Origin: Candidatus Berkelbacteria bacterium | GTDB lineage: Bacteria; Patescibacteriota; UBA1384; 2-12-FULL-50-11 | Length of the DNA stretch: 45,809 nt | Direction of reading: 5' to 3' | NCBI GenBank assembly: GCA_030650195.1 | Contig: JAUSEP010000086.1 | Coordinates: 1-45,809, forward strand | Shown: one piece after another, positions 10,098-42,320 of the stretch | How the letters are laid out: every line of letters begins with the position of its first letter | How positions within the stretch are numbered: position 1 is the stretch's first letter | The notes under the pieces: model-generated | Database searches by the model: none | Seen by the model: only the letters and a program-made list of their open reading frames with translations | Told to the model about the DNA's origin: nothing | Translations under genes and position numbers: made by a program

Positions 10098-10098
10098 A

Positions 10099-10467: not shown

Positions 10468-10507
10468 AAACTAATTTTGGGCTAAACTATCAGAGCAAGT
10501 TTACTTT

Positions 10508-10581
10508 GGTCCCATCGTCTAGTGGCCTAGGACGCCTGGTTCTCATCCAGGAAATCACCGGTTCGACTCCGGTTGGGACCG
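10508..10581 (+). tRNA. tRNA-Glu(CTC)
   Basis: Acceptor GGTCCCA/TGGGACC, anticodon arm CCTGG-ttCTCat-CCAGG, T arm ACCGG-TTCGACT-CCGGT. Confidence 0.96.
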
Positions 10582-10634
10582 CAGAGAAGCCTGAAGAGGG
10601 TTTCTTGCACAGCACTAACAACAAGGAGACAGAG

Positions 10635-26553: not shown

Positions 26554-27681
26554 TCAGGATTGCGATTGTATAGCTGGCTTAAGCCTCTCGGCTACTAGCT
26601 CCCAGACGTGAATAAAGCGGTGGTTACCATATTGCTTCATTTGCTCCAGGTAATTCTGATAGTTACATTCAGTTTTTAGGTAAACTCCCAGATTTTCGTT
26701 GATGCTACTGATATAGGCCAGGGTTTGTTTGCACGATTCAGATTCCGCAAAGACTTTTTTGAATTCACTTTCGTCTTGGCAATTGTTCTTTATGACGATT
26801 GAGCCTAGGATAAGATCTCTAGTAAGAGACGGGGGACCTAGATTACCAGTTGCAATAATAGACTCTCCACGAGAGGCTTCTTCCATTCTCTCAAGTAGAG
26901 AATCTCTAATAGCAGCGTCTTCTTTATCTTGGGTAATAATGGTCTGGTTCAAGGCGTTGATTACATCATAGGATAGCGGGAGTTTCTCCCCATCTTTTTT
27001 TCTGATAACAGAAAGAACTTTTTCTGCGATCCTTTGAGCTGTAGAGAAGCCCATAAACCTCGTAAGGAGTGCAAGCTCGTTATATGTATAGTTACCACTC
27101 TCGCCACCCCTTAGGGTAACTGTATGCCACCCTTCTGCTGAAGAAGAATGCATTTCACTGTCGAAGATTGCTAGTCCCGGCTTGATTTCACAAACCCTGA
27201 CATCCTTATCTCCAAATGATCTTGAAAGGAGTGTTAACATTGACGTCCCAATTCCAGCAAACGCAGCCTTGTTAATAATCGGAAGATTTTCGAGCCTTTC
27301 CCCGTGAGTAAAGGGAATATCCAAACCCAGACCTCCTGATCCAGTAGTACCAATCTGGATGTATTGGATAGGTGGATCAAGCTGTTTAAGAGTCTTGTAA
27401 AGCTCAAGGTAGAACGCGATTAATTTTGAGTAATTCTGCGCGGGTGAACCAGAAAAGATTGTGGCAATGTTAATACAGTTGACAATGACGTCCGGTTTCA
27501 GAGAGACGATAAGCTCAAGGGTTGCCGGGTCAGTAATGTCGGTCTTTTTATAAGGTATGTTAGTAGATGATTGCGGTGATATATCGAGCGAAGTTACTTG
27601 GTAGTCCTGAGCCATCCTTAAGGCAACTTCTCTACCGATCAAACCATTACCACCGAGAACAAGTGCAATTCCTTTCTTCAT
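26554..27681 (-). CDS. Atypical NAD(P)-binding SDR/epimerase-like oxidoreductase
   Basis: LVLGGNGLIG Rossmann motif, DITD, PDVIVNC; no clear YxxxK. Confidence 0.7.
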   Translation of the reverse strand: MKKGIALVLGGNGLIGREVALRMAQDYQVTSLDISPQSSTNIPYKKTDITDPATLELIVSLKPDVIVNCINIATIFSGSPAQNYSKLIAFYLELYKTLKQLDPPIQYIQIGTTGSGGLGLDIPFTHGERLENLPIINKAAFAGIGTSMLTLLSRSFGDKDVRVCEIKPGLAIFDSEMHSSSAEGWHTVTLRGGESGNYTYNELALLTRFMGFSTAQRIAEKVLSVIRKKDGEKLPLSYDVINALNQTIITQDKEDAAIRDSLLERMEEASRGESIIATGNLGPPSLTRDLILGSIVIKNNCQDESEFKKVFAESESCKQTLAYISSINENLGVYLKTECNYQNYLEQMKQYGNHRFIHVWELVAERLKPAIQSQS

Positions 27682-27736
27682 AAGCTCGAGTATATTCTTT
27701 GGCAGTCTCTTGGGGAATGGTGTATGATTTCTTCGG

Positions 27737-29263
27737 ATGGAACTCCGTATTAGAAAGAGATCGGCGGCAGAATACTACGAAAATTTTTTGTCGTGGGATG
27801 TTGAAAGGCAAGCAGCCGAACTTACTCATAGAACTCCTGAGTTTTGGGAGAGAATAGGTGGAGAAAAAGCGCTAGAAACTTTTCATGATGCGGCGGAAAA
27901 GGTACCAGCTTACAAGAAATTCCTGGCTGAGAATGGTATTGACCATCGGGAGGTTGTTTCTCTCGATGATTTTAAAAAAGTACCACCAGTTAATAAGGAA
28001 AACTACCTGCGTCGCTACCCCTTACACGAATTATGCTGGGACGGTGCGTTAACCAAAATGAACGTTATCTCAGTTAGCTCTGGGACTAGCGGTAAACCCT
28101 TCTTCTGGCCCAGAGACATCTGGCAGGAACATGAGGTCGATCACTACTATGAGCTGACACTGAGATACTTATTTGGGGCACACGAAAAGAAGACCCTAAT
28201 ATTAGTTGCTTTTGCTATGGGGATGTATATAGCTGGCCCATTTACCTTTGCGTCATGCTTAAGAATTGCAGAGAAGGGTTATCCGATTTCTATTGCAACT
28301 CCAAGCAATGACATCGAAGCCATTCTTAAGGTGGTTCAAGATCTTTCCGGAGAGTTTGACCAGGTTATTATTGGCGGATACCCACCACTAGTCAGAGACA
28401 TTATTGATTCTGGGGTGAGAGCGGGAATCGACTGGAAAGAAAAGAATACCAAGTTATTCTTTGGAGGAGAGAGTTTTAGCGAAAAATGGCGTAACTATAT
28501 ACTTTCACTAATCAATGGCGGAAGCTCACTAGACTCGGCTGTAAATATGTACGGAACCGCTGACGCAGCACTGCTTGGGATCGAAACTCCCACATCTATT
28601 TCGCTTCGAAAAGTAGCTGCAGCAGACCCAAAATCACTCAAGGAGATTTTTAATAGCGAACGGTTGCCGTCGGTACTCTCCTACAACCCACTGCTTAACT
28701 ATTTCGAAACTACCGAATCGGGAAATCTACTCTTCACCTCTTCTTCTGGCGTACCCCTCATCCGTTACAGCATTGGTGATGTTGGCGGGACTGTCTCGTA
28801 TGATAATGCAATGAGAGTAGTCTCGGAGAATAGTGACCTCTTCCAAGAATACGAGAAGCGAGACATAGACTGGAAACTGCCTCTTGTTTACCTATTCGGT
28901 AGAGACGACTTTACCGTCGTCCTTTATGGCGCCAATGTCTACCCGGAAAATATAAAAGAAGCTCTTGACGACCCTAGAATTAATCATTTGGTGAGTGGGA
29001 AGTTTATTCTCAGCAAGGGAGATCGACGCGATCTTTCCCCATACCTAGATCTGAAGATCGAGATGGCTCAAGGCATCAAGCCCGAAAGGTCTATGGTCAA
29101 TCTCATAAAGAGGGCTGTGGTAGAAACTATAAGGAGCCATAACTCTGAATACAACTTTATCCACGAGACTATAAAGAAAAAGGCCGAACCACGGATCAGG
29201 TTGGAAGAGTATGGTAGCAAGGACTTCAAATTCGGCATCAAACACCGTTGGGTCAATGCTTAA
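27737..29263 (+). CDS. Phenylacetate--CoA ligase (PaaK)-family adenylate-forming enzyme
   Basis: SSGTSGKP, YGTAD, PLIRYSIGD, GRDD, GANVYPENI. Confidence 0.88.
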   Translation: MELRIRKRSAAEYYENFLSWDVERQAAELTHRTPEFWERIGGEKALETFHDAAEKVPAYKKFLAENGIDHREVVSLDDFKKVPPVNKENYLRRYPLHELCWDGALTKMNVISVSSGTSGKPFFWPRDIWQEHEVDHYYELTLRYLFGAHEKKTLILVAFAMGMYIAGPFTFASCLRIAEKGYPISIATPSNDIEAILKVVQDLSGEFDQVIIGGYPPLVRDIIDSGVRAGIDWKEKNTKLFFGGESFSEKWRNYILSLINGGSSLDSAVNMYGTADAALLGIETPTSISLRKVAAADPKSLKEIFNSERLPSVLSYNPLLNYFETTESGNLLFTSSSGVPLIRYSIGDVGGTVSYDNAMRVVSENSDLFQEYEKRDIDWKLPLVYLFGRDDFTVVLYGANVYPENIKEALDDPRINHLVSGKFILSKGDRRDLSPYLDLKIEMAQGIKPERSMVNLIKRAVVETIRSHNSEYNFIHETIKKKAEPRIRLEEYGSKDFKFGIKHRWVNA

Positions 29264-30461
29264 GAACAACTCCCGAAGGGATGCTTCTGATTATCTTCCC
29301 GGGCTCTTTAGGGATCCTGCCGATCCTAATCTACTAAGTCTTAAAGATGACCCGAATATTGAACAGGTCGATACTCTTTCTCATGCCATCAACGAGCTTT
29401 TCGACATAGAACATCCTTGGCTAAAACCAGGTAACCCAGTATACGATCGAACCAGAGAATCTTTTATTGATAGGCGGGCAAGGGACCTAGATCTGAGCAA
29501 GCAAGGAGTTTGGGTCTACTACCCATGGGCTAGCAAGCTCGTCCATATTCCTGAGGAGAGCGTCTTCGTTCGTCTCAGGGGCTCGAGAAACCGTAATCTG
29601 GTAACTGAAAAAGAACAAAAAGTTATCCAGTCTAAGAAGGTTGGTATTGCGGGAATGAGTGTCGGCTCGAATATACTAAACGCTCTAGTTCTCACTAATG
29701 GGCCCCGACACTTAAAAATAGCTGATTTTGATGAAATCTCTATTCCAAATTTGAATCGGATTATGGCACCAATTCACGCTGTTGGGCTCAATAAGGCTAC
29801 TTTTTTTGCCAGGAAATCGTTTGAGGTTGATCCTTATCTGAATATTGACGTTTTCAATCACGGATTAGCCACAAAAGATTTCGACCAATTCTTTAAGCAG
29901 CCAAAACTAGACCTGTTTATCGAAGAAATGGACAACCCTTATCTTAAGATCCAATCACGAAAAGTCGCTCGAGCAGAGCGAATCCCTGTAATTATGGCGG
30001 CCGACAACGGTGACGGTGTGTTGATAGACGTCGAAAGATTTGACCTCGAGCCAGAAAGCCCGTTATTCCACGGCTGGTTGGACGATATGGATCTCGACAA
30101 CATATCCGAGAACCTTAGCTTCTCCCAAAAACTAACTATCATTGCTAATATGGTTCGTCTAGAGCAAGCAACGCCGCGAGCTCAAAACTCACTCGAAGAG
30201 GTGGGAACGGTGCTAAACACATGGCCCCAATTGGGCACCGCCGCTCTACTGGCTGGGGTCGCGCTGACCTTTGTTACTCGCAGGATACTATTGGGGCAGC
30301 CGATGCCATCCGGGCGCTACTCAATAGGCCTTGAAGAACATTTAGTACCTAACCACAATTCTTCCTCTGAGGTCTCGGCACGGAAGAACCACACCAACCA
30401 TATAATGAGCAATTTCCGTTCCTTCCAGCACTTTATAGAAGAAATCGGAAAAATAAAATGA
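29256..30461 (+). CDS. ThiF/E1-like adenylyltransferase (Rv1355c/MoeY-like)
   Basis: WVYYPW N-terminal extension, VGIAGMSVGS, IADFDEISIPNLNR, DVERFDLEP, WPQLG; start overlaps the upstream stop. Confidence 0.88.
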   Translation: MLKNNSRRDASDYLPGLFRDPADPNLLSLKDDPNIEQVDTLSHAINELFDIEHPWLKPGNPVYDRTRESFIDRRARDLDLSKQGVWVYYPWASKLVHIPEESVFVRLRGSRNRNLVTEKEQKVIQSKKVGIAGMSVGSNILNALVLTNGPRHLKIADFDEISIPNLNRIMAPIHAVGLNKATFFARKSFEVDPYLNIDVFNHGLATKDFDQFFKQPKLDLFIEEMDNPYLKIQSRKVARAERIPVIMAADNGDGVLIDVERFDLEPESPLFHGWLDDMDLDNISENLSFSQKLTIIANMVRLEQATPRAQNSLEEVGTVLNTWPQLGTAALLAGVALTFVTRRILLGQPMPSGRYSIGLEEHLVPNHNSSSEVSARKNHTNHIMSNFRSFQHFIEEIGKIK

Positions 30462-31492
30462 ATATTAGCTCGAATGTTTGGGACATTAAACCACGAGATT
30501 TTCCTGCAAAAGCTATCAACGCAGATAAGATCTCCTATTTACTCAGATACGCAATCTTGGCACCTTCGGCACACAATGTTCAGCCCTGGCAATGCAAGAT
30601 TGTTAATAACGGAGCAGAGATTCATCGTCATCCGACCAGAGCTCTTGACGTCTCAGACCCAACAAAAAGGCAGACAACCATTTCGTTGGGTGCCTTCGTC
30701 TGTAACTTCGTTACTGCTGCTAGTGCTTTTGGCATAAAATCCCAAACTGATTGGTTTGAATCGGGAGGCGAGGGGGGAATGGTAGCGAAAGTTGCACTTT
30801 CGGGATTAGAAAACGCTCAACTCGAGCCTAAAAGAGCCCAAGACTTAGAAAATATTATTGGGAGACGGGTTAACCGAACGGAGTATTCTGCGAAGAAGAT
30901 TGATCGGGCAACGCAGGACAGCATCTTACAACTAAATGCAGATCCAGATCTACAGATACATTTGGAGGCAGATACAAACGCAATAGATAAATTGGCACAG
31001 GTAGTTGAGACTGGTACTAAATTCGCTTTCAGTAATCCAGCCTTCAGGCTAGAACTTTCTGGATATGTTACGCCTAACAATAGTAGCCGCAGAGATGGAA
31101 TTCCTGGTTATACCGCTAATCTAAATCTTATCTCATCCCATTTTCTTCCATGGCTAATGAAGAGAGTTGACATTGGCTCCCCCCAGGCAAGTAAGGAGGG
31201 GCGGATGATAAGGAATTGTTCTCATGTATTAACAATTTCGAGTTCAACTGATAACGAGCTAGCTTGGCTAAATTCCGGATTCTTGTTTGAAAAAGTTGCT
31301 CTATTTTTAACAGAGAGGGGAATATCTATCAGTTTGTCTGGCGCAGCCATAGAACCACCACTTGCTCCTAATGTCGTCCAGAAAATTATAAAAACAGATT
31401 TCAGGCCACAGATCCTGTGTCGTTTAGGATATTCCAACAAGCTACCGCGCCACTCCCCTAGATATCCCGTAACTGATATATTGTTGAAGTAA
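30458..31492 (+). CDS. Nitroreductase-superfamily FMN oxidoreductase (Acg-like)
   Basis: ILAPSAHNVQPW, RRVNR, PQILCRLGY, SPRYP; ATGA overlap with the ThiF gene. Confidence 0.88.
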   Translation: MNISSNVWDIKPRDFPAKAINADKISYLLRYAILAPSAHNVQPWQCKIVNNGAEIHRHPTRALDVSDPTKRQTTISLGAFVCNFVTAASAFGIKSQTDWFESGGEGGMVAKVALSGLENAQLEPKRAQDLENIIGRRVNRTEYSAKKIDRATQDSILQLNADPDLQIHLEADTNAIDKLAQVVETGTKFAFSNPAFRLELSGYVTPNNSSRRDGIPGYTANLNLISSHFLPWLMKRVDIGSPQASKEGRMIRNCSHVLTISSSTDNELAWLNSGFLFEKVALFLTERGISISLSGAAIEPPLAPNVVQKIIKTDFRPQILCRLGYSNKLPRHSPRYPVTDILLK

Positions 31493-31510
31493 GGAGGGAA
31501 ACTGCTCGAA

Positions 31511-33784
31511 TTGAGCATATTGGTTGTAAGTGCTCTTGCTAATTTGGTTCTGGCTTTACTGACGTATCACGGTAATCCCAAAAGCCACACAAATAGACTT
31601 TTTGCCACGGTGGTGGTGATTACGATCTTTTGGCTTTTCGCAAACTATATAGAGTTCAGCTCAACAACAGAAGGACTCGCTTTGATCTCTGTAAGAATTG
31701 TTATGTTTTTTGCTACTGCTCAAATTTACAGTTTATTTTTACTAGTACACACCTTCCCGGGCGAGAAAATTACTCTAAGAAGGCCAATCTTATTTATCAC
31801 GCTAATTTATACAATTTTTGTAATGCTCGTCACTCTTTCGCCCTACCTATTTACGTCCATAAAGAGCTTTGATCCAATACCAAACCCAACTGCAGGTCCG
31901 GGTATGATATTCTTTGCGCTTCTAGTGCTAGGGATATTTGGTAGCACAATAATTATTTTAATAAAAAAGACTTTTCGGGCGTCGGGCATATTAAAAACTC
32001 AGCTTTTCTACCTATCGCTTGGGATAATTTCAACTTTTGGCCTAATAGCTATTAGCAATTTTCTTTTGGTGCTAGTGTTCAATAACACAACGCTACTTCC
32101 CTACACGCCTCTGTACACTCTTATACTGGTTGGGACAACAACGTATGCTATCGCCAAACACGGGCTATTCAACGTTAAAGTTGTTCTTGCGGGAGTAGCC
32201 GCTGTCGCCATCATCTTTATCAACCTACTGCAGGTATTTTCTGCTGAAAATTCCAGCCAACTTATCTTCCGATTGATCGTTTTGGTTTTGATTACCATAT
32301 TTAGCTATCTGTTCTTCCGTTCAGTTCAAACTGAGGTAAAGAGACGCGAGGAGGTTGAAGTATTGGCCAAGGAGAAAACAGCAGCATTGGGTGAGATTGA
32401 AGAACGTAATAAAAACCTAGCAACGCTACAGCGAATTTCCGACATCGTTCTAAACGAAAGTGAGATGAAGATAATGGCGCAGAAGATTTTGGATGAGATA
32501 CCAAAACAACTAGAATCGTGCGCAGGGGCAATGCTTTCAGTTGTTAAAGACAGCCAGTTAGTAGCATACGCACTGTCACAACATCAGTTCTCCGCTAAGA
32601 TACTATCCTTGGTTGGAGGTGATTTAGAAAAATACAGCTTCCCAGTTAAAAAAGATTTTAACTTAAGCCACACGGTACTGGTAGACAAAGAACCTCATGA
32701 TTCAGATTCTTTGAGTGATTTTATTAGTCCACCAATTTCTAAAGCAGTTGCCTTAACAATTCAAAAAATGATTGGTGCCAGACATATCGAAGCATTCCCA
32801 CTTTATGCTGGAGGTGAACCGTTCGGAGTAATGATGTTTGTTTTCACGGAATCTAAAGATCAAGTTCACGAACAAAACCATTCAATTGCTAAAGCAATCT
32901 CTGATGATATGTCTCTTGCTATTCAGAGAGCTCAAGCCTACACAAAGCTTAAAGAAGCTAATGCGTATTTAGCTGACCTAGACAAACTTAAAGACGAATT
33001 CATATCTATGGCCTCCCACGAGCTAAATACGCCTCTAGCGGCCATTGAGGGCTACCTATCTATGGTTCTAGATGAAGGGTTAGGTAAGGTAGATCCCAAG
33101 GCCAAGGAATATTTAAACCGTGCTTATGATTCTAGTAAACGTTTAGCGGAATTAATCTTAGATCTTCTTAATGTATCTCGTATTGAACAGGGTAGATTAA
33201 AGATGAAGTTTACTAAGACTAATTTTGCTTCCCTAGTTGATTCCGTTATCAAAGAATTACAGCTTAAGGCAGATACGAAGAAGTTATATCTAAAACTTGA
33301 AACATCTAAGACCGAACTTCCCGAAACTTTCTGTGACCCAGACCGAATCCGTGAAGTTTTTGTTAACCTAATCGGTAACTCAATTAAATTCACAGACAAA
33401 GGTGGTATTACGGTTAAGCTATCTAAACCAGACGACCACATTCGAGCAGAAGTAGTAGATACCGGTCGAGGTATTGCCGAAGCCGACCAGAAGTTATTAT
33501 TCCAGAAGTTCTCCCAAGTAAAGCGTGAAATAGACGAACACCAAGGAACCGGATTGGGTCTGTATATCAGTAAAAACTTTGTGGAGTTACATAAAGGTCG
33601 TATTGGTGTCACCTCAGAACAAGGCAAGGGAGCAACATTCTTCTTTGAGATTCCAATTATGAAATCTGCACCAAAAGAAGTAGCTGGGGCGATGCTGGAT
33701 AAACCAGTAAACGCTGCCCAAATTGAAAGCGGTCCAAAAGGTGTACCAGCAATAGTGGCCGAGTCGAGCAAGGTGAAAGTGTAA
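31511..33784 (+). CDS. Membrane sensor histidine kinase (multi-TM N-terminus, GAF-like domain, HisKA, HATPase)
   Basis: About 8 hydrophobic segments; SHELNTPL, NLIGNSIKFT, DTGRGI, GTGLGL; AAGGAGG before TTG start. Confidence 0.93.
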   Translation: MSILVVSALANLVLALLTYHGNPKSHTNRLFATVVVITIFWLFANYIEFSSTTEGLALISVRIVMFFATAQIYSLFLLVHTFPGEKITLRRPILFITLIYTIFVMLVTLSPYLFTSIKSFDPIPNPTAGPGMIFFALLVLGIFGSTIIILIKKTFRASGILKTQLFYLSLGIISTFGLIAISNFLLVLVFNNTTLLPYTPLYTLILVGTTTYAIAKHGLFNVKVVLAGVAAVAIIFINLLQVFSAENSSQLIFRLIVLVLITIFSYLFFRSVQTEVKRREEVEVLAKEKTAALGEIEERNKNLATLQRISDIVLNESEMKIMAQKILDEIPKQLESCAGAMLSVVKDSQLVAYALSQHQFSAKILSLVGGDLEKYSFPVKKDFNLSHTVLVDKEPHDSDSLSDFISPPISKAVALTIQKMIGARHIEAFPLYAGGEPFGVMMFVFTESKDQVHEQNHSIAKAISDDMSLAIQRAQAYTKLKEANAYLADLDKLKDEFISMASHELNTPLAAIEGYLSMVLDEGLGKVDPKAKEYLNRAYDSSKRLAELILDLLNVSRIEQGRLKMKFTKTNFASLVDSVIKELQLKADTKKLYLKLETSKTELPETFCDPDRIREVFVNLIGNSIKFTDKGGITVKLSKPDDHIRAEVVDTGRGIAEADQKLLFQKFSQVKREIDEHQGTGLGLYISKNFVELHKGRIGVTSEQGKGATFFFEIPIMKSAPKEVAGAMLDKPVNAAQIESGPKGVPAIVAESSKVKV

Positions 33785-33819
33785 AGGGGTCTTGACAAAG
33801 TATTTAGTCCATATAATAA

Positions 33820-33838
33820 TTGTATGTAATGAATACAA
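33820..33838. promoter_or_regulatory. Candidate toxin-antitoxin operator
   Basis: TTGTAT-7 nt-ATACAA inverted repeat just downstream of TTGACA/TATAAT and over the antitoxin start. Confidence 0.55.
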
Positions 33839-34071
33839 AGATTGTTAATTTATCTTTACCAAAGAACCTACTTGATATGGTTGATGAAGCGGCCAAGGCG
33901 GAGTATCGAACTCGAAGCGAGTTAGTCCGGGAAGCCCTACGACAGTACGTTGGAAGAGAAAAGTTCTCAAAACTGACAACCTCACTTAGGGAGTTCGCTG
34001 CCCAGCAAGGGTTTAAGCCCGAGGATGTGAACAGGCTGATTAAAGAGTACAGAGCAGAAAAAGCTAGTTAA
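33829..34071 (+). CDS. Ribbon-helix-helix (CopG-like) antitoxin
   Basis: IVNLSLPKNLLDMVDEAAKAEYRTRSELVREALR. Confidence 0.85.
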   Translation: MNTKIVNLSLPKNLLDMVDEAAKAEYRTRSELVREALRQYVGREKFSKLTTSLREFAAQQGFKPEDVNRLIKEYRAEKAS

Positions 34072-34472
34072 TGAAGGTTGTACTCGACACAAACATTATT
34101 GTGTCGGGGTTGTTGTTCGGAGGTAAACCCCTCCAGATCCTTGAAGGGGTCGTCGACGGTAAAATTGAGGTGTATACCTCAGAAGTGTTAATGGATGAAT
34201 GTTTGCGTATTTTGGAAATGAAATTCGGACTATCCAGAGATCGTTTAACGGAGACAGAAGAATCGTTGAGGGAGAACTTTAAAATCGTGCGTCCACAGAC
34301 AACCGTTAAAATAGCTCGTGATACAGACGATGATGCTGTTCTAGCGGTTGCGCTTGAAGTTGGTGCAGACTTTCTAGTATCGGGTGATAATGACTTGTTA
34401 GTATTGAAGCACATTGCCAATATCCCTATCGTTGATCCCGGACAGTTCCTGAGTCAACTTACTCAAAGGTAA
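34071..34472 (+). CDS. PIN-domain toxin (VapC-like)
   Basis: VVLDTNIIVSG, RDTDDDAVL, VSGDNDLL; TAATG coupling to the antitoxin. Confidence 0.9.
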   Translation: MKVVLDTNIIVSGLLFGGKPLQILEGVVDGKIEVYTSEVLMDECLRILEMKFGLSRDRLTETEESLRENFKIVRPQTTVKIARDTDDDAVLAVALEVGADFLVSGDNDLLVLKHIANIPIVDPGQFLSQLTQR

Positions 34473-34473: not shown

Positions 34474-35442
34474 CTAAGAGGATTTCCGGAAGATACTATC
34501 GATCATCTGCTCTAAGGGAACAGACTCCATATGAATATCAATCAGGTTTTTACCTTTGTTTAGCCCTTCAACAAGTGAGACAACATTATCCTCCGGTACT
34601 TTAATTAGGAAGTTACCGTTATCGTGCTCAAGAATCTTGCCGTATTTTTCCAGCTCTTCTTTGGGCGGGCCGTTCTCAAAAACTAGTCGAACATAGCGCT
34701 CTTTCTGGTACTGTGCAGTTAGCGCCTCGATCGAATCATCGTAGACTTTAACGCCGTGATTAATAACAATAACTCGATCACAGACATGCTCTATATCATC
34801 CATATCGTGGCTGGTCAGAACGAGAGTGACGTTGTTCTCTTTCTGGACTTTACGCAAAAAAGTCCGGATGTTCTTCCTGGCAGTAATATCTAGGCCAATA
34901 GTTGGCTCATCTAGGAAGAGAACTTCGGGATTGTGGAGGATGGCGCCGATCAGTTCGACCTTCATTCGCTCACCTAACGAGAGGCGACGAAGTTGCGTCT
35001 TAAGATGCTCTTGAACATCGAGTAACTCCGTCAGCTCCTTGAGTCGCGTTTTGTAGGCCTCGTCAGGAATTCGGTAGATGTTCTTTAAGAGCCAAAAACT
35101 CTGCTCAGGTGTAAGATCCCAACTCAGGCCGGATTTGTTACCCATCACCAAGCCGATCCGACGTAAAAATGAGTGGTCTCGCCCGAACGGGTTATAGCCA
35201 AGGACCTCAACGGTTCCGGCAGTTGGGTGGATTAGTCCGGTCAGCATCTTGGTTGTAGTGGTTTTCCCGGCACCGTTTGGTCCTAAGAAAGCGACAGATT
35301 CGCCCCTCTGGACGCTAAAAGTTATATCGTTGACAGCCTTTACCTCTCGTTTTTTTGGATTAAACAGACCCGTAATCAGATTATTGTTCTGACGCAGGGT
35401 AAATGTTTTGGTTAAATTTTGGACTTTAATTACACTTTCCAT
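34474..35442 (-). CDS. ABC transporter ATP-binding protein
   Basis: GPNGAGKTT, LSLGERMK, FLDEPTIGLD, TSHDM. Confidence 0.93.
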   Translation of the reverse strand: MESVIKVQNLTKTFTLRQNNNLITGLFNPKKREVKAVNDITFSVQRGESVAFLGPNGAGKTTTTKMLTGLIHPTAGTVEVLGYNPFGRDHSFLRRIGLVMGNKSGLSWDLTPEQSFWLLKNIYRIPDEAYKTRLKELTELLDVQEHLKTQLRRLSLGERMKVELIGAILHNPEVLFLDEPTIGLDITARKNIRTFLRKVQKENNVTLVLTSHDMDDIEHVCDRVIVINHGVKVYDDSIEALTAQYQKERYVRLVFENGPPKEELEKYGKILEHDNGNFLIKVPEDNVVSLVEGLNKGKNLIDIHMESVPLEQMIDSIFRKSS

Positions 35443-35444
35443 TT

Positions 35445-36248
35445 TTATGACGAGGCCGAAGTATAGTTTTTTAGAGCCATCTTCCATCCCCATAGCCTGA
35501 GTAACATGAGCACTATCGTAACAAATAGCGCGATAACCAGCATAACGCTGGCGTTTGTTTTACCGAGCACTACAGAGGTAGGGATGGCAGCAGCGAATAG
35601 GACGGGTAAAAAATAGGTTAAGGAGAATTTGAGAAGTCTCGGGAAGCCTTCGTAAGGCAGGTCGAAGTCAGATATGCCGTAGATTAAGCTGGATATCTCG
35701 GCGGATTCACCGAGCCAAAAAACAGGGATGGTTAGAAGAAACTGAATGCAATGAAAGATAATGATGCTTAGAAGAAAGATAATAACCCCCGCTAGAACAG
35801 GCCAGAAACTAAGATGTAGTGCCGGCCAATTAATTGTAAGGGCGATGATGAACATTGGAAGACCTGATTCTTTGGCTAGCCCTAAGAGGCTGATACTTCT
35901 GGTTGAAACGTAAAAAAGCAAAGGCATTGGCTTGGTTAGTAATAGATCGAGATTACCTCGATTGACGTCAAGTCGGAGCTGATCGAGACTGTCGTAGCAC
36001 CACGTATAAAGCACAAAGAAGGTGACTGTTCCAGCAAAGATAAAGAAAAGAATCTCATTGTGGTTATAACCTGCTACTGTCTGAACTTTGCCGTAAATAA
36101 CGCCTATAAACAACAGGTAGGTAAGAGCGTAGGTGACTGCCGATAAGACGCTAAAAATATTGGTCCAAAAGTAGGCAGTGTCGTAACGAAAGGTGTTAAC
36201 AACGTTGATCCTTAAAACGTTCAAGCGATCGCTAAATGCCGATAGCAT
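35445..36248 (-). CDS. ABC-2 family permease
   Basis: About 6 TM segments; GNLDLLLTKP motif; adjacent to the ATPase. Confidence 0.85.
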   Translation of the reverse strand: MLSAFSDRLNVLRINVVNTFRYDTAYFWTNIFSVLSAVTYALTYLLFIGVIYGKVQTVAGYNHNEILFFIFAGTVTFFVLYTWCYDSLDQLRLDVNRGNLDLLLTKPMPLLFYVSTRSISLLGLAKESGLPMFIIALTINWPALHLSFWPVLAGVIIFLLSIIIFHCIQFLLTIPVFWLGESAEISSLIYGISDFDLPYEGFPRLLKFSLTYFLPVLFAAAIPTSVVLGKTNASVMLVIALFVTIVLMLLRLWGWKMALKNYTSASS

Positions 36249-37017
36249 CGTAACTCCTTAAAGCTCTTTTCCAGAGATAGCTAGTGGCTACCCAAAGAAT
36301 AATCACCCACGTTATCCCAACCAGAAACATTTGGGGGTGAGTAAAAGTCAGGGTAGAGGGCGCAAAAACCGATGCTGGGCCGTAGATGGCCATTGGGAAT
36401 GGACTGAGCAGAAGTATCTTCTGCCAGACGTGGGGAAAGAGAGACAAAGGTATCATAGCTCCTGAAAAAACGTTAAAAACATGACCGATAGACCAGCGTA
36501 GAGGAGCGGAGTCGATGACATAAAAAGAGATAATTCCAACCAGAATGTTGAAAAGCGTAATTATTAGGAAGCCAACAACAAAATAGGCCAGAAATAACAG
36601 GACGTAGGCAAGCGTTAAGGATGCCGAGCCAATCACGATGCCTGCAACAAGCGTTGCCGAGGAAACTATGGCCGTAATTGCCCTTTCTCCAGAGAACATT
36701 GAGTAGAAGTAAGGGATCAGCGAAACGGGTTTAATAAGGTAATTGTTAATATCGCCTCTTCTAATCATGTGGTTGATAAACCCAGAAAACATTAACCCCG
36801 TGCCGCCAGTGATACCAGTAATCGATCTGGCAATTAGAATGTACGATATGATTTCCCTAGTGTTAATTGTGCCATTTGAGCTATGAGCAACAGCTAGCCA
36901 AAATAAGACGAAAAAACCAACCTCAACCAAGCGCCTAACGACAATCGCCACCATCTCTAGCGGGTAAGTAAAGTATCGTAGTACCTCGAAGTAGAAAACC
37001 CGGAAGTATAATCCCAT
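36232..37017 (-). CDS. ABC-2 family permease
   Basis: About 6 TM segments; GDINNYLIKP, FSGAMIPLSLFP. Confidence 0.85.
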   Translation of the reverse strand: MGLYFRVFYFEVLRYFTYPLEMVAIVVRRLVEVGFFVLFWLAVAHSSNGTINTREIISYILIARSITGITGGTGLMFSGFINHMIRRGDINNYLIKPVSLIPYFYSMFSGERAITAIVSSATLVAGIVIGSASLTLAYVLLFLAYFVVGFLIITLFNILVGIISFYVIDSAPLRWSIGHVFNVFSGAMIPLSLFPHVWQKILLLSPFPMAIYGPASVFAPSTLTFTHPQMFLVGITWVIILWVATSYLWKRALRSYDAIGI

Positions 37018-37171: not shown

Positions 37172-37597
37172 ATGACAGACACATTCAAGAGCATTTTACT
37201 GGTAGACGACGACATGACCTTGCGAGAGATGTACGCCGAGCGGCTCAAAGCCGAAGGTTTTCAGGTAAATACCGCTAAAGACGGTGAAGAAGCCTTGCAG
37301 ATGGCAACGGATAACCATCCAAACATTATTTTACTAGATATCATGATGCCTAAGATCAACGGTTTGGATGTATTAAAAAAACTCAAAGAGCAAACAGACA
37401 CCAAAAATATTCCCGTTATTGTTCTAACAGCCTTAATCCAAGATCGAGAACGGATGGAATCTGTTACCAGAGGAGCCGATGACTACATCGTAAAATCTGA
37501 AACGATGCCTGGTGAAGTAATCGCCAAAGTCCACGCTCTTATAGACAAACCTCGCACTACCGGCCAAGAACAGCCAGCTACGCCGTCAGCGGCGTAA
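37172..37597 (+). CDS. Single-domain response regulator
   Basis: ILLVDDD, LLDIMMP, VIVLTA, GADDYIVK. Confidence 0.92.
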   Translation: MTDTFKSILLVDDDMTLREMYAERLKAEGFQVNTAKDGEEALQMATDNHPNIILLDIMMPKINGLDVLKKLKEQTDTKNIPVIVLTALIQDRERMESVTRGADDYIVKSETMPGEVIAKVHALIDKPRTTGQEQPATPSAA

Positions 37598-37607: not shown

Positions 37608-38930
37608 ATGGCCAACAACGATTTAATTAGATTACGGGGCGGTAAACCTCTAGTAGGAGAGATTCATTTGCGTGGAGCTAAGAATACCGTACCTAAGAAT
37701 ATGGTAGCGGCTCTTCTAACTGATGAACCAGTAATTATTCGTGATGTTCCTAAGATTGAAGACGTAGATATTATGTCTAGGCTCTTTCAACGCTTAGGTG
37801 TTGAGGTAGAGGAGATACGCCCAGGAACGCTCCAGATTATTGCTAAGAAATTACGACAACCAACTCGCCAAGATCTCGCAGACATTACTGGACGAAGCCG
37901 TATTCCGATACTTACAGCTGGACCTTTACTACACCGTTTCGGAAAAGCCTTAGTACCTAAATTAGGTGGTTGTAATATAGGACCAAGACCAGTAGATTTT
38001 CACGTCAAAGCCTTACGTGAACTGGGCGCTGACTACGACGAGAACGAAGATAGCGGTGTTTTTAAAACTAAGGGCTTAAGAGGAGCAAAGATCATTCTTG
38101 AGTACCCTAGTGTGGGAGCTACGGAACAGGTAATTCTTTCTAGCGTCCTAGCAGACGGCCAGACCGAGCTTCATAACGCTGCAGTGGAACCAGAAATCAT
38201 GGACTTAATCGCCCTGTTACAGAAAATGGGTGCGATAATCTCTGTGGATACCGACCGAACTATCTATGTAGAGGGTGTAAAAAAACTCAGTGGAGCTACA
38301 CACTCAGCTATGCCAGATAGAATAGAAGCTGCCTCATGGGCTTGCGCAGCCCTCGGAACAAACGGCCGTATTCTTGTACGTGGAGCCAGACAACTAGATA
38401 TGATGACCTTTCTAAACAAATACCATCAGATAGGCGGGGGATTTGAAGTTAATCGAGATGGTATTACTTTTTACCGAGAAAAAGAAAAATTATCTTCTAT
38501 TACTGTCGAAACAGATGTTCATCCAGGATTTATGACTGACTGGCAACAACCACTTGTAGTTGTATTAACTCAAGCCGAAGGACGCTCAGTCGTCCATGAG
38601 ACCGTTTATCCATCTAGATTTGGATATATCGACGAGCTAAATAAGATGGGAGCCAAGATTAAATTGTTCGAAGAATCACCGGAGATGATTAAATCTAAGT
38701 TTGGTAAACGTAATTATCGTCAATCCGCTCAAATCGATGGACCAACAAAACTACACGGTTCGGAGATGACAGTCCCAGATTTACGAGCAGGTTTTTCATA
38801 TATCGTCGCTGCACTAATTGCAGATGGTGAAAGTACAATCCATGGATTCAGCGTACTTCAACGTGGCTACGAGCACTTAGTGGCAAAACTCCAGTCGCTT
38901 GAAGCGGAAATTATCGAAGTCAAAGCCTAA
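37608..38930 (+). CDS. murA: UDP-N-acetylglucosamine 1-carboxyvinyltransferase
   Basis: GAKN, GGCNIGPRPVDFH, SVGATE, PDRIEA, PGFMTDWQ, DLRAG, RGYE. Confidence 0.96.
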   Translation: MANNDLIRLRGGKPLVGEIHLRGAKNTVPKNMVAALLTDEPVIIRDVPKIEDVDIMSRLFQRLGVEVEEIRPGTLQIIAKKLRQPTRQDLADITGRSRIPILTAGPLLHRFGKALVPKLGGCNIGPRPVDFHVKALRELGADYDENEDSGVFKTKGLRGAKIILEYPSVGATEQVILSSVLADGQTELHNAAVEPEIMDLIALLQKMGAIISVDTDRTIYVEGVKKLSGATHSAMPDRIEAASWACAALGTNGRILVRGARQLDMMTFLNKYHQIGGGFEVNRDGITFYREKEKLSSITVETDVHPGFMTDWQQPLVVVLTQAEGRSVVHETVYPSRFGYIDELNKMGAKIKLFEESPEMIKSKFGKRNYRQSAQIDGPTKLHGSEMTVPDLRAGFSYIVAALIADGESTIHGFSVLQRGYEHLVAKLQSLEAEIIEVKA

Positions 38931-40342
38931 AGAATCGGCTCTTCTTTCCAACTAAGAATTGCAAACGAACCTGTAGTGGGGAACTGGGGTGGTGGGTTTA
39001 AGGCCAGATAAGTATCGTAGGTCTGAACAGTCGTCTGATAGCCAGAAGTAACCTGGTTATTGCCGTTGACCCAGCTCCAGGTCCACCAGGAAGCCGAGCC
39101 TATACCGCCATAAACACTAATCTTAGTTTTAACATTACTCGGGTAGTACGGCCGAAAAACTTTACCTTTCTGACTTAAAAGAAAGGCGTCGATGTTGAGA
39201 TCGGCTTCGGAGGAAGAGTTAACTACCAAATCACTTTGACTAATAAGTCCTAGGGCTACTGAACCATCTTTAACGGTATAGTTAATATCATTTTGCAGGA
39301 AGATATTGGTGTTAGTGCCATTAGAATCTGGTAAACGACCAGAAGCTAAAGTGATCCTCGCACCAATTGTGCCCCAAACCCAAGCGTTGTCTGCAACAAA
39401 GATAACGCCGTTTGCCGGAAGATTTCTGCTGGTTGGTTCCCACACGGTGGTCTGCATTAAAGAGTTTAAGCGACCGTGGTTTACACACGAGCCACCTGTG
39501 CCACCGTTATCACGACTAGCGGTGACTTTACCGATAGTGATGGTATTACCAGCATTGAAGCGAATGGCATAGCCGGAGTAGGTTTTTTGTGACTGTCCGT
39601 TAACGAGGGTTGGCAGAAAAATTCCGTTAGCTTGAGCGGCCAATTGCAGATCTCCAAGATCACTTGTCAGTTGATTAAAATCAACCTGGGGCACAGGAAA
39701 CTGCCAGTAGGTAGTTGGTCCTCCTATTCCCCAAACACCGTTATGCGTTTGTCCGTCACCACCGAAACAATTAGCCGGTACGTATGTACTGACAGCAGAA
39801 GCGACAACACCGTTAGCAGTACCATCGTAATGGATACCACGATTAGAGTGAACCAAACCGTTAGTGAACTCGGTATCTCCAAACCAGGCTTCAGAGTTAG
39901 TAACAAACGAGTACTGCGCAAAGGAAGGAATGCCTAACGTTGCAACGACCGTTCGTTTCTCCCCACTAACAGTAACACCTTCGGCCCGTACCGATACGAC
40001 GGTATTGCTTCCTTGCGGTGGGGTGATTGTAATATTGTAAGTACCCAAAACTTCTCCCGCAGTGTTCTTGTAAGTGTGAGTGTAAGGCCCGTACGGTCCG
40101 GTGCCCTGACAAGCCTGCCCATCACAATAATCAAGGTTGTTATGAGACAGATGCCAAAGATAATAGTTAATTCCTGCCTCAGCGATACTCAAGGCTTGGT
40201 TAGACTTAACTTGCCTTTTAACGACTGTGTAGTTGTTGTAGTTTAAGCTCATTATTGCCCCGGTCGTAATAAGCATTACTGCCGCAAAGGCCAACAACAT
40301 CGGCAAGAAATAACCAGGTTTACTTTTAAAAATCTTTTTCAT
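38927..40342 (-). CDS. PilX-like minor pilin/assembly protein
   Basis: Pilin-like N-terminus PGYFLPMLLAF lacking Glu5; ALSIAEAGINYY; ends SWKE. Confidence 0.8.
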   Translation of the reverse strand: MKKIFKSKPGYFLPMLLAFAAVMLITTGAIMSLNYNNYTVVKRQVKSNQALSIAEAGINYYLWHLSHNNLDYCDGQACQGTGPYGPYTHTYKNTAGEVLGTYNITITPPQGSNTVVSVRAEGVTVSGEKRTVVATLGIPSFAQYSFVTNSEAWFGDTEFTNGLVHSNRGIHYDGTANGVVASAVSTYVPANCFGGDGQTHNGVWGIGGPTTYWQFPVPQVDFNQLTSDLGDLQLAAQANGIFLPTLVNGQSQKTYSGYAIRFNAGNTITIGKVTASRDNGGTGGSCVNHGRLNSLMQTTVWEPTSRNLPANGVIFVADNAWVWGTIGARITLASGRLPDSNGTNTNIFLQNDINYTVKDGSVALGLISQSDLVVNSSSEADLNIDAFLLSQKGKVFRPYYPSNVKTKISVYGGIGSASWWTWSWVNGNNQVTSGYQTTVQTYDTYLALNPPPQFPTTGSFAILSWKEEPIL

Positions 40343-40917
40343 AGGTTTGTCTTAAAGTTACGTAAAGTTATTTTAGTTGTCACTATTATCGGGCTTTTTA
40401 AGATATTTCCCGTATCAACTGCGCTTAGTGTTGGCTCAACGATTTTTATACTCGAGACAGAAACAGGGAAGCTAAGTAGAGCGTTTTGGTCGTTGTAGTA
40501 ACGAAATGCGGGATTGTTAACAGCGTTGGTCGTCTTGCCGACCAAGCTATACGTCTTAGCGTCAGCTTCGCTGTAAGTGTAATTTGGTGCTTGGCCTGTA
40601 GGTGGAATAACAGAATATCTAAGTGCCGTACCATCAAGATAAAAATTAATTTCACTAGGAGCGTTATCCGCAGCATTAGGATAGCCACGAATTTTGAAGT
40701 TAGTTTCCGTCGCCTCCATAATCAGCGTTGAACTGCGCAAAACCCGACTTAAACGATCAATTGCAAGATTAAGCTCTGTTTGAACAACTGACTGAGTCTC
40801 AACCAACTTATTATTTGAGTAGCTTTTTATAATGGTGCTGGAAACAAGACCACCAAATAAGGAGACGATGAAGATAACGACAATCAGTTCAAGTACGGAG
40901 AATCCTCTTTTCATCAA
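40339..40917 (-). CDS. Type IV minor pilin (PilW-like)
   Basis: KRG/FSVLELIVV prepilin cleavage motif. Confidence 0.85.
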   Translation of the reverse strand: MMKRGFSVLELIVVIFIVSLFGGLVSSTIIKSYSNNKLVETQSVVQTELNLAIDRLSRVLRSSTLIMEATETNFKIRGYPNAADNAPSEINFYLDGTALRYSVIPPTGQAPNYTYSEADAKTYSLVGKTTNAVNNPAFRYYNDQNALLSFPVSVSSIKIVEPTLSAVDTGNILKSPIIVTTKITLRNFKTNL

Positions 40918-42320
40918 GAGACTATGAAACCACTAATTTGGGTTACTACCTGTCCGTTGGAGTCAAGTAATAGATCCCAACCACCCGTTACCGCTCCGGT
41001 CAAATCAAAAGTTGCATTTACAGACTTTTGGTTCGGATCAACGTTGATAACGGCAGGGAGAATATCAGAGCTACCTGCCTTGCGAAGAAGAACAGTCGTA
41101 TTACCAGTAAAATTAAATCCTTCTATAACGACCTCGACAGATGCCCCGCTAGTACCAGATGCAGGACTGACGCTTTCAATGCGTGGCCAGTTAGGATTAG
41201 CGGTAACAACCATTGTGACGTCTAAAGTTGTACCCGGATTGACGGAAACGTTCTGGTACGGACTGGTGCTTACAATATAGTAGCTACTGCCAACTGTTAG
41301 TGCGTAACTATCCCACTCGATATTACTAAAAGTATTAGCACCGCCAGCACCAGCTTGGGTGTAAATATTTTTTGGAGTATCAGGGTTGGTGGCAGTTAGC
41401 TTGCTTGACGTAGCCGTGACAGCGAGGCCCGCAATTGGCAACCCTACCTGGTCCGTTAGATTTACATTCATATTAGATAGAAAATCAATAGATAATGTTT
41501 GGATTGTTACTTGCTGAACATTGATGTCTACGTCAGGCTGAATCTGGTTGGGGTTTTGACTGGTCCGACTGGTAGTGAAGTCTGTCGAAAACCCTGTTTT
41601 AGTCGCAACGATATGATAACCATTCTGATTATCCGGCAATAAATTAGCAACGAAAACATAACCCTGATCGTTTGTTAGGCCAGTGAGGAAAATACTTTCT
41701 TCCGTATTCTCGATAGTGACCGTAGCGGAAGAAACTGGTAACCCCTGGGCGTTAATAACCTTAACTAGCATCATCCCTGTTTGCGACGGAGTTTCCGCGG
41801 CTTTAGCGGCGGCGTTACTCGAAAGTTTAACTAAAACAGTTGGGGTACCCACCTTTAAGGCCTCTACATTTACACGCTTGTAATCCATGGGAACTGGATC
41901 ATAAGTTGCAGAAGTTCCACCGTCGGTACAGCTCCACAGAGAGGGATTGCCCTCAACGGGAATCACGCAACCGTCAAATGGATCGTCAACAAATATTACG
42001 GCGGTATTGAGGGTGAAGCTAACCCCACCCCTAGTAACAGTTTGGGTATCTGGAATACTGCCCTGAGGGAGAATTGTGCCACCTTGAGTGGAGAGTGAGT
42101 CGTAAGGGAGGTTACGTAAATATTCCAACTGTTCGTTGGCCAAAGCCCCAGCCATTGTTCGAATTTTGCCGGAGTTGGTAGCGTTTAACATTACTAAGAA
42201 AGATCCGATCACTGCACCGAAAATAACGGTAATTACAAAGGCATCAATAATTAACTCAATGAGAGTAAATCCGTTCTTTTTACGGCCTTCGTTACGGGAG
42301 GAACGGATTGCTTTTGCCAA
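40914..42320 (-). CDS. Type IV minor pilin (PilV-like) with C-terminal beta-sandwich domains
   Basis: NG/FTLIELII; LANEQLEYLRNLPY; C-terminal PRIESVSPASG (IPT/TIG-like). Confidence 0.85.
   Translation of the reverse strand: MAKAIRSSRNEGRKKNGFTLIELIIDAFVITVIFGAVIGSFLVMLNATNSGKIRTMAGALANEQLEYLRNLPYDSLSTQGGTILPQGSIPDTQTVTRGGVSFTLNTAVIFVDDPFDGCVIPVEGNPSLWSCTDGGTSATYDPVPMDYKRVNVEALKVGTPTVLVKLSSNAAAKAAETPSQTGMMLVKVINAQGLPVSSATVTIENTEESIFLTGLTNDQGYVFVANLLPDNQNGYHIVATKTGFSTDFTTSRTSQNPNQIQPDVDINVQQVTIQTLSIDFLSNMNVNLTDQVGLPIAGLAVTATSSKLTATNPDTPKNIYTQAGAGGANTFSNIEWDSYALTVGSSYYIVSTSPYQNVSVNPGTTLDVTMVVTANPNWPRIESVSPASGTSGASVEVVIEGFNFTGNTTVLLRKAGSSDILPAVINVDPNQKSVNATFDLTGAVTGGWDLLLDSNGQVVTQISGFIVS

Follow-up and report, generated by a model that had tools for sequence, protein, structure and literature searches.

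What function brings an adenylate-forming ligase, a ThiF-type cyclase, a nitroreductase, and a membrane histidine kinase together in a genome of 0.79 Mb? The question is raised by contig JAUSEP010000086.1 of Candidatus Berkelbacteria bacterium (Patescibacteriota; assembly GCA_030650195.1), which was analyzed from position 1 to position 45,809 of the forward strand; this whole stretch of 45,809 nucleotides is called the window below. The source genome comprises 787,523 bases in 100 contigs, of which the window is contig C94, and is 93% complete; the only sequencing run listed with the stretch is groundwater metagenome DNA, and no RNA run is listed. An earlier note, made from the window alone, had described four co-oriented genes at 27737-33784 as a probable operon for the synthesis and sensing of a signal. 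The coordinates of the open reading frames (ORFs) agree with that layout, and profile and structure matches agree with the family calls. On the plus strand, a PaaK-family adenylate-forming ligase (27737-29263, 508 amino acids) overlaps by 8 nt a stand-alone ThiF protein of the Rv1355c/TrzS/OxzB cyclase type (29256-30461, 401 amino acids), which overlaps by 4 nt a nitroreductase with the monomeric Acg/FDO-type flavin oxidase fold (30458-31492, 344 amino acids), and an 18-nt gap separates the latter from a kinase with HisKA_7TM, weak GAF_2, HisKA, and HATPase_c domains (31511-33784, 757 residues). The longest ORF for the ThiF protein opens at 29211, but alignments of homologues favor the ATG at 29256. 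The analysis described here indicates that the enzymes probably form one functional module with the membrane sensor of the kinase.

Distribution and synteny of the cassette

Homologous loci were gathered from a close-relative set of 41 genomes (40 relatives and the window's own genome, G000), from public genome contigs (80 loci retained out of 304 ligase relatives identified by a pattern scan), and from an independent sample of 201 Patescibacteria genomes drawn evenly from the phylum. Gene families, synteny, nested co-occurrence, and enzyme-sensor co-variation were computed directly. The ligase was present in 10 of the 41 genomes of the close-relative set, and a kinase adjoined it in six of seven loci from these genomes, the seventh being a 5.9-kb contig. 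When the 80 loci were searched by tblastn within 6 kb of the ligase, 54 had the ThiF protein, 53 the 7TM N-terminus of the kinase, 35 the nitroreductase, and 32 a receiver. Restricting the search to the 43 non-cyanobacterial loci that have 3 kb or more of upstream and 6 kb or more of downstream sequence gave counts of 40, 37, 25, and 26, respectively. Blind clustering of 909 ORFs (at least 70 amino acids) from 71 related loci and the window resulted in the same set of genes, as the five largest families were the kinase, the ligase, the ThiF protein, the nitroreductase, and the receiver.

The 201-genome sample contained 22 genomes with the ligase, 87 with a HisKA_7TM kinase, and 17 with a ThiF protein of this type. 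The earlier note had made the synteny of the kinase with the enzymes in other genomes one of its preset tests; the computational checks that it named all favored its interpretation, and that synteny was found: a HisKA_7TM kinase lies within about 5 kb of the ligase, on the same contig and strand, in 20 of the 22 ligase-bearing genomes, in line with the 37 of 43 well-flanked loci above. The exceptions are G086, which had no 7TM match, and G124, in which the 7TM kinase is on another contig. Co-occurrence of the two adenylating enzymes is nested, as all 17 genomes with the Rv1355c-type ThiF protein also carry the ligase, whereas no such protein was found in the 179 genomes that lack it. The adjacency of ligase and kinase recurs in many families despite reshuffled gene order inside the cassette. 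The constant pair of the cassette is the ligase and the 7TM kinase, and the spread of the cassette in the Patescibacteria is patchy but wide.

Co-variation of the enzymes with the sensor domain

A genome of the same genus, G003, carries the cassette in a syntenic position, with a P-type ATPase, a receiver, a sigma factor, and the histidyl- and isoleucyl-tRNA synthetases (HisRS and IleRS) on one side and then a short-chain dehydrogenase/reductase (SDR), the ligase, the ThiF protein, the nitroreductase, and the kinase. Between the window and G003, IleRS is 85% identical, MurA 92%, the receiver at 37172 92%, and other flanking proteins 30-79%. The cassette enzymes have diverged to 58% (SDR), 39% (ligase), 43% (ThiF), and 26% (nitroreductase). 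The kinase itself is split, with 43% identity over residues 1-290, 89% over residues 291-480, and 86% over residues 481-757. Windows of 30 residues place the break near residue 270, where the last membrane helix ends: identity is 23-57% in residues 1-270 and 83-100% in residues 271-757 (71% in a final stub of seven residues). The comparison of the window with G026, from a different family, gave the opposite result, as IleRS and MurA are only 42% and 40% identical but the ligase, ThiF, and 7TM domain are 56%, 61%, and 50% identical.

Phylogenetic trees of 52 loci (42 for ThiF) follow the same division. In the tree of the kinase core the window and G003 are sisters, with a Shimodaira-Hasegawa-like approximate likelihood ratio (SH-aLRT) support of 99. 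In the tree of the 7TM domain the window instead groups with L019 (98) and L020 (97), and G003 is placed elsewhere; the ligase and ThiF trees also place the window with L019 and L020. By approximately unbiased (AU) tests, neither the ligase (p 2.5e-7) nor the ThiF alignment (p 2.3e-4) is compatible with a clade of the window and G003, which had been chosen for testing after the pairwise identities were calculated and before the trees were built. The nearest neighbor by identity was then compared across 49 loci: it was the same for ligase and 7TM domain in 25, for ligase and core in 13, and for 7TM domain and core in 21. Ligase and 7TM domain agreed against the core in 12 rows and ligase and core agreed against the 7TM domain in 0 rows, where the rows include reciprocal pairs and represent perhaps seven independent groups. 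The membrane domain of the kinase thus appears to diverge in step with the enzymes and not with the rest of its own protein. Co-variation of synthesis enzymes with the sensor half of a kinase is the pattern of the agr and com specificity groups. A second potential mosaic, L046 compared with L050 (core 91%, 7TM domain 55%, and ligase 47% identical), was set aside because these loci have two kinase paralogues each and the closest-kinase rule may mix them.

Architecture of the sensor kinase

The hypervariable part of the kinase is its membrane sensor domain (31511-32320, plus strand, residues 1-270, HisKA_7TM), and the conserved part (32321-33784, plus strand, residues 271-757) consists of a signaling helix, a putative GAF-fold domain (approximately residues 319-479), HisKA, and HATPase_c. 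The Pfam scores are 40.8 bits for HisKA_7TM (cut-off 28.6), 66.8 for HisKA, and 97.4 for HATPase_c, with GAF_2 at 20.8 bits falling below its cut-off of 28.6. In an AlphaFold2 (AF2) model of residues 1-480, nine helices extend to about residue 272, at a predicted local distance difference test (pLDDT) score of about 90, and are followed by a long signaling helix and a GAF-like fold. In a Foldseek search, all matches to this model were GAF domains (best 3w2z, E 4.2e-5, TM-score 0.63 by target; pLDDT below 50 for residues 358-413), and the membrane part had no match. Of 52 cassette kinases, 29 are of a long form (697-935 amino acids) that contains a middle domain, and 23 are of a short form (455-617 amino acids) in which the membrane domain runs directly into HisKA. 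Because the GAF domain is absent from about 23 of the 52 cassette kinases, the membrane domain is the likelier sensor; the multi-transmembrane kinase of the earlier note therefore stands, but the GAF domain is not a constant element of it. Literature searches returned HisKA_7TM only in an archaeal census and in a review, and the accessible part of the census names no ligand (PMC5847659).

Kinases of this family were also seen behind other genes. In three of 16 loci from ligase-less genomes, a HisKA_7TM kinase follows another adenylating module (L115:3720-9802, L116:3309-8745, and L112:5152-10128). One of these modules consists of a classic AMP-binding enzyme, a 250-amino-acid protein without assignment, and a methyltransferase, and the remaining two of a short 260-amino-acid ThiF protein, the same 250-amino-acid protein, and a small ORF. 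The HisKA_7TM receptor family may therefore be paired with several kinds of synthesis genes.

Receivers and potential output

The earlier note had named two lone receivers as possible partners of the kinase, and both are present: one at 37172-37597 on the plus strand (141 amino acids; PF00072, 1.6e-26) and one at 10090-10467 (placed by the note at 10099; 125 amino acids), the start of which is overlapped by the stop of a P-type cation ATPase gene. Genome-wide tblastn searches identified two histidine kinases and three receivers, the third receiver being on contig C56. The best matches of the 37172 receiver lie directly downstream of the cassette kinase in G026 (55% identical), G030 (50%), and G040 (68%), and the 10090 receiver adjoins the P-type ATPase in both the window and G003. 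We therefore regard the 37172 receiver as the probable partner of the kinase and the 10090 receiver, which stays with the ATPase, as a less likely one, so that only the first of the two suggested partners is retained. Pilus genes occur in the flank of six of 69 loci, as either a receiver-PilB fusion (PF00072 and PF00437) or PilC (PF00482), suggesting that the output of the signaling could possibly be linked to type IV pili. In L028, L032, and L089, a fusion of a receiver with a PilB/GspE-type ATPase and then a PilC/GspF platform protein directly follow the cassette receiver.

The ThiF protein and the nitroreductase

The ThiF protein matched the Pfam model PF00899 (3.3e-17) and, far more strongly, NF005901, the Rv1355c family (1.1e-98, 331 bits, profile positions 25-349 of 722), compared with 7e-15 or weaker for the ThiF and MoeB profiles. 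Its score lies below the NF005901 cut-off of 476 bits, which was set for the fused 722-position protein. Eight aligned fusions of ThiF and nitroreductase, five of them named 'Rv1355c family protein', are 35-37% identical to the window protein, and the 120 fused matches listed are 36-44% identical. The motifs G.SVG, AD.D, N.NR, and D.ER.D and the residues D219 and D226 are invariant in 16 of 16 sequences, eight of which are fused. The assignment of the protein to the OxzB/TyzB/Rv1355c kind in the earlier note is thereby supported, the whole length of the protein being homologous to the ThiF half of the Rv1355c/TrzS family. Stand-alone ThiF proteins of the same subfamily (P0190 and P0175, 40-44% identical) also occur in a Streptomyces strain and a metagenome-assembled genome of the Verrucomicrobiae.

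The accessible portions of the relevant papers describe what such enzymes do. TrzS (Rv1355c) is a fusion of ThiF and FDO that, with the acyltransferase TrzA, yields N-acyl tryptazolones, and it needs D217 for the cyclase and R540 for the desaturase activity (PMC12856293); the mass changes reported for TrzS are a loss of 18 Da and then one of 2 Da. TyzA is an enzyme similar to FeeM and acyl-homoserine lactone (AHL) synthases, TyzB a ThiF protein, and TyzC an FDO (PMC10404671), and TrzS, OxzB, and TyzBC are all described as making N-acyl oxazolones (PMC12856293; bioRxiv 10.1101/2020.06.11.147165).

The nitroreductase scored 204 bits against NF047509 (Acg family FMN-binding oxidoreductase), above the cut-off of 199, and matched both the structure of Acg (PDB 2ymv, 7.3e-14) and the C-terminal half of the Rv1355c profile (1.3e-19). 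Across 40 aligned sequences, each residue of the motif PS..N.QPW is conserved in 39-40, the preceding Ala in 38, R136 in 39, and R140 in 40. The earlier note had counted this enzyme among the members of the system, which holds for the window but not for the core of the cassette, given its limited presence near the ligase. A relation between the presence of the FDO and the type of upstream enzyme was also considered, and none was evident by eye.

The PaaK-family ligase

The ligase had no Pfam match even at an E-value of 10, and its match to TIGR02155 (PaaK; 1.8e-18, 66.3 bits) is below the equivalog cut-off of 646.3, as is a weak match to FlxY (6.5e-6) below its own equivalog cut-off. It matched PaaK in the PDB (2y4o, 8.9e-9), and its AF2 model (pLDDT 88, predicted TM-score 0.87) matched PaaK1 in Foldseek (2y27, E 3.7e-23, TM-score 0.79 by target). 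Further fold neighbors are BT_0428, NatL2 (6tm4, 1.3e-18), AjiA1 (6wuq), ClxA (9s3l, 1.0e-17), and HCL (6hdw), among which NatL2, AjiA1, and ClxA are PaaK-family AMP-ligases that bind aromatic acids. These three are also coenzyme A (CoA)-independent ligases, a property not given by their PDB titles. All 20 aligned homologues share, without variation, the adenylation motifs SSG.G.P (residues 114-121) and YG.AD (272-276), D348, and the C-terminal lysine K502.

No OxzA/TyzA-type acyltransferase is encoded in the operon, as the earlier note had stated. PF13444, the fold of FeeM/OxzA-type N-acyltransferases according to the accessible part of PMC10404671, was also not found in the 93%-complete genome (control matches in 4 of 14 genomes), and neither were the PP-binding domain of acyl carrier proteins (ACPs; PF00550) and CoaE (PF01121), for each of which the control matched in 11 of 14 genomes. 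The lack of matches to CoA and ACP machinery and to an OxzA-type acyltransferase suggests that the ligase probably hands its acyl group directly to an amino acid and, together with the obligate pairing of ligase and ThiF, supports a ligase that stands in place of the acyltransferase. We accordingly propose that the predicted ligase is CoA-independent.

A full-length homologue of the ligase (34% identical) is also encoded in Rivulariaceae-type cyanobacteria (Calothrix, Rivularia, and Richelia), where its gene is divergent from two membrane Ser/Thr protein kinases (L068, L070, L074, L077-L081, and L088; for example L079:3413-9548). The ThiF protein, the nitroreductase, the 7TM kinase, and a receiver were not found within 6 kb of the ligase in these nine loci. 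As the nine are close kin (85-91% mutual identity), they represent one event and do not count as support.

A variable first enzyme

The ligase is often accompanied by an enzyme that acts on amino acids or by an oxidoreductase. Of 69 loci, 36 encode one of four such families no more than three genes away from the ligase: 11 have an aromatic-amino-acid ammonia-lyase (PF00221; the best NCBIfam match of the one representative scanned is FlxA tyrosine ammonia-lyase, with 575 bits, below the equivalog cut-off), nine a class I/II aminotransferase (PF00155), nine a Glu/Leu/Phe/Val-type dehydrogenase (best match ScyB tryptophan dehydrogenase, 275 bits), and seven an extended-SDR oxidoreductase, the version found in the window. 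None of the four families was found in the other 33 loci, nine of which have less than 1.3 kb of upstream sequence. A few cassettes also encode S-adenosylmethionine-dependent methyltransferases and an alpha/beta hydrolase. Three of these families make carboxylic acids from amino acids, which suggests that the ligase may use such an acid as its substrate.

The window version is an extended-SDR (epimerase-like) NAD-binding oxidoreductase encoded on the minus strand at 26554-27681, divergent from the ligase and separated from it by a 55-nt spacer. It matched the Pfam Epimerase model (2.8e-6), its atlas neighbors are all PF01370, and it had no NCBIfam match. The SDR gene also adjoins the ligase in G003 (58% identical) and in G026 (48%), and by its position and family we assign it as the predicted fifth gene of the cassette, in the variable first-enzyme slot.

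Proposed function and alternative explanations

From these observations we infer the chemistry, the product as the ligand of the kinase, and the self-signaling, that is, a system of the quorum-sensing-like kind that the earlier note had suggested. In this proposal the variable first enzyme, which is the SDR in the window, would supply an amino acid-derived carboxylic acid, and the ligase would adenylate the acid and pass the acyl group directly to an amino acid to give an N-acyl amino acid. The TrzS/OxzB-type ThiF protein would adenylate and cyclize this compound to an oxazolone-type ring, which the FDO oxidase, where present, would desaturate. The lipophilic product (the N-acyl amino acid in versions without ThiF) would be sensed by the multi-helix membrane domain of the kinase, which would then phosphorylate the single-domain receiver at 37172; the output would not be transcriptional and could involve the type IV pilus machinery. 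We give about an even chance to a product that is an N-acyl amino acid or an oxazolone-type molecule, and lean slightly toward the scheme of its CoA-independent synthesis as a signal, perception by the membrane domain, and relay to the 37172 receiver.

A number of findings weigh against this proposal. The nitroreductase is near the ligase in only 35 of the 80 loci, and no match to NF047509 was found anywhere in five genomes (93-100% complete) whose cassettes lack it. Five of the 22 ligase-bearing genomes gave no match to the ThiF protein (window ThiF as query, E at most 1e-25), indicating that an oxazolone is not the product of every cassette; the cassette of G040, for example, is made up of ligase, kinase, receiver, and receiver. 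Of the 179 ligase-less genomes, 66 have a HisKA_7TM kinase, so that the receptor family is wider than the cassette. The ORF families of the loci include no conserved exporter, and all receivers examined are without an output domain. CoA could be scavenged from a host instead of made, and the absence of PF00765 carries no information, as the control for this search matched in 0 of 14 genomes. The co-variation has its own weak points: G003 is the only same-genus genome with a cassette at hand, the baseline of identity between it and the window is uneven (30-92%), and the clade of the window and G003 remained acceptable in the AU test for the 7TM domain (p 0.23). Third codon positions are near saturation, with 27-47% identity in codons 1-270 and 27-57% after, so that replacement of the sensor and fast drift in place are indistinguishable by codons.

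The synteny and the co-variation would fit equally well if the kinase and the enzymes shared a substrate instead, the membrane domain detecting an external, perhaps host-derived aromatic or amino acid and the adjacent enzymes taking up, converting, or detoxifying the same compound. Such substrate sensing is the main rival to product sensing and is in keeping with the variable upstream genes, which work on amino acids, and with the very small genome of 0.79 Mb, since bacteria with very small genomes may depend on hosts for metabolites. Two ATP-consuming adenylating enzymes without downstream catabolic genes would, however, make a poor assimilation route, and no transporter is conserved in the cassette. 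The nearest characterized ThiF-FDO systems are, moreover, biosynthetic in the accessible text of their descriptions (PMC12856293, PMC10404671), and overall we judge sensing of a substrate to be unlikely. Still less likely, in our estimate, is a product with no signaling role, such as an antimicrobial, a membrane lipid-like compound, or a stress metabolite, alongside a kinase that is a co-inherited regulator responding to envelope or other cues. Oxazolones and N-acyl tyrosines are discussed as lipids or antimicrobials in the available part of PMC12856293, and HisKA_7TM kinases are common in genomes without the ligase (66 of 179), but this explanation does not account for a membrane domain that alone appears to diverge with the enzymes, nor does the receiver have a DNA-binding output with which to regulate the operon.

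Two further explanations concern the ThiF protein and the gene order. According to the accessible part of PMC12596934, most known ThiF-like enzymes work on proteins, peptides, or tRNA, with OxzB as the sole one known to act on a small molecule, and the window ThiF could by analogy be an E1 or MccB-type enzyme that acts on a C-terminus to which the ligase adds a group, in a system resembling ubiquitin or ribosomally synthesized and post-translationally modified peptides. We consider this very improbable, as the overlaps of 8 and 4 nt, the 18-nt gap, and the 55-nt spacer leave no room for a precursor gene, no small conserved family was found among the ORFs of at least 70 amino acids that the search covered, and for this protein the E-values of the ThiF and MoeB profiles, given above, fall far short of that of the small-molecule Rv1355c family. 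Gene order in small genomes is compact and neighbors need not be related, and the adjacency could in principle be chance or purely historical; its recurrence in 20 of 22 ligase-bearing genomes from many families, its persistence through changed gene order, and the nested co-occurrence of ThiF with the ligase (17 of 17) make this scarcely credible.

Returning to the proposed signal, a wider version can be sketched, which we put forward as speculative and on balance doubtful. The cassette would be a phylum-wide, horizontally exchanged means of communication among Patescibacteria, with a CoA-free oxazolone or N-acyl-amino-acid autoinducer read by the 7TM kinase. Pherotypes would arise when the first enzyme, ligase, ThiF, and sensor are exchanged as one block, and a bare receiver would act on type IV pili and thereby on attachment to hosts or kin.

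If this wider version is correct, the cassette would be the first cell-cell signaling system in the Patescibacteria and would include the first receptor for the oxazolone class. Patescibacteria are ultrasmall and host-dependent and have very few regulators; a signal of their own making, with a possible link to pili, would be relevant to the way in which they locate hosts or kin. A PaaK-family ligase that replaces an acyl-CoA-using N-acyltransferase would, in addition, be a CoA-free route to N-acyl amino acids. In the available portions of the oxazolone papers the role of these compounds is left unresolved, with signaling suggested but not shown (PMC12856293; bioRxiv 10.1101/2020.06.11.147165), and no receptor is mentioned; oxazolones hydrolyze within hours, and bacteria were exposed to them without a phenotype (bioRxiv 10.1101/2020.06.11.147165). 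A cyclase of the same type that is tied to a receptor kinase with a co-varying sensor makes this role directly testable. Literature searches on Patescibacteria with oxazolone, ThiF, or phenylacetate-CoA ligase, with quorum sensing or histidine kinase, and on the combination of ThiF, PaaK, kinase, and nitroreductase returned nothing that describes the cassette, nor any described signaling molecule for the Patescibacteria, most subscription journals being outside their coverage.

Other features of the window

A promoter-like site (TTGGCA, 18 nt, TATGAT; 10 of 12 matches) lies on the plus strand at 27699-27728, just upstream of the ligase start codon. It is weak evidence, as the promoter scan showed no overall enrichment, with 9 sites found against 18.9 expected. 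Between the kinase and the 37172 receiver are a pair encoding a ribbon-helix-helix (RHH; CopG/VapB-like) antitoxin and a PIN-domain toxin (33820-34472), with its own strong promoter-like site (TTGACA, 17 nt, AATAAT at 33792-33820), and, on the minus strand at 34474-37017, an ABC-2 type transporter of one ATPase and two ABC2_membrane_6 permeases. As the receiver directly follows the kinase in G026, G030, and G040, the RHH-PIN pair looks like an insertion, and as the ABC-2 transporter is not a conserved neighbor of the cassette elsewhere, it is unlikely to serve as a dedicated exporter. The P-type cation ATPase (906 amino acids) and its lone receiver occupy 7377-10467 and are kept in G003 (68% and 79% identical); such a pairing of a transporter with a receiver is unusual. 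The gene that follows, for a sigma-70-like protein with regions 2 and 4 (10506-11432), has its longest ORF opening inside a tRNA-Glu gene (10508-10582), so that its true start must be further downstream. On the minus strand at 38927-42320, three consecutive genes encode proteins of 471, 192, and 468 amino acids with no or weak Pfam matches, the third having a CarboxypepD_reg match below the cut-off and an Ig-like domain; these may be surface proteins.

Comparison with known systems

The ThiF protein and the nitroreductase resemble those of the oxazolone systems, namely OxzAB of Pseudoalteromonas rubra, TyzACB, and TrzAS (Rv1356c/Rv1355c) of Mycobacterium tuberculosis. The ThiF-like ATP-dependent cyclase is of the same subfamily, with conserved adenylation residues, and an adjacent monomeric FDO/Acg-type flavin oxidase with the flavin mononucleotide (FMN) motif is common to both. 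The known systems have a FeeM/AHL-synthase-like N-acyltransferase, whereas the window cassette has none and pairs its ThiF type with a PaaK-family ligase instead (17 of 17). ThiF and FDO are separate genes in the window, and the FDO is often absent from cassettes, whereas in TrzS the two are fused. Unlike the oxazolone systems, cassettes of the window type often have an amino acid-converting gene before the ligase and have a 7TM kinase after the enzymes.

The window ligase shares its fold and adenylation motifs with PaaK and with the AMP-ligases of benzoxazole pathways (NatL2, AjiA1, and ClxA). It differs from PaaK in being about 80 residues longer, in scoring below the equivalog cut-off, and in having no Pfam match, and while PaaK works in a CoA-dependent context, no CoaE or ACP was found in the window genome. 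The cassette also resembles FlxA/FlxY of flexirubin biosynthesis, a tyrosine ammonia-lyase and an acyl ligase, in that an ammonia-lyase gene is next to the ligase in 11 of 69 loci; in contrast to that pathway, the cassette has no polyketide genes and the window has an SDR in place of the lyase.

The arrangement as a whole resembles that of the quorum-sensing cassettes in which a synthase is paired with a receptor kinase, such as agrBDCA, the comCDE pherotypes, luxM-luxN, and cqsA-cqsS. These likewise place signal-synthesis genes beside a polytopic membrane histidine kinase, and, as appears to be the case for the window cassette, they combine hypervariable synthesis genes and a hypervariable sensor half with a conserved transmitter half and receiver. 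The enzymes and the sensor fold of the window cassette are unrelated to theirs, and its ligand is probably a non-peptide amino acid derivative. As the window receiver is without a DNA-binding domain, no autoinduction loop is evident, unlike in the quorum-sensing cassettes. The kind of system proposed, a synthase-receptor-kinase cassette, is a known one; what is new is the enzyme set, the lineage, and possibly the class of ligand.

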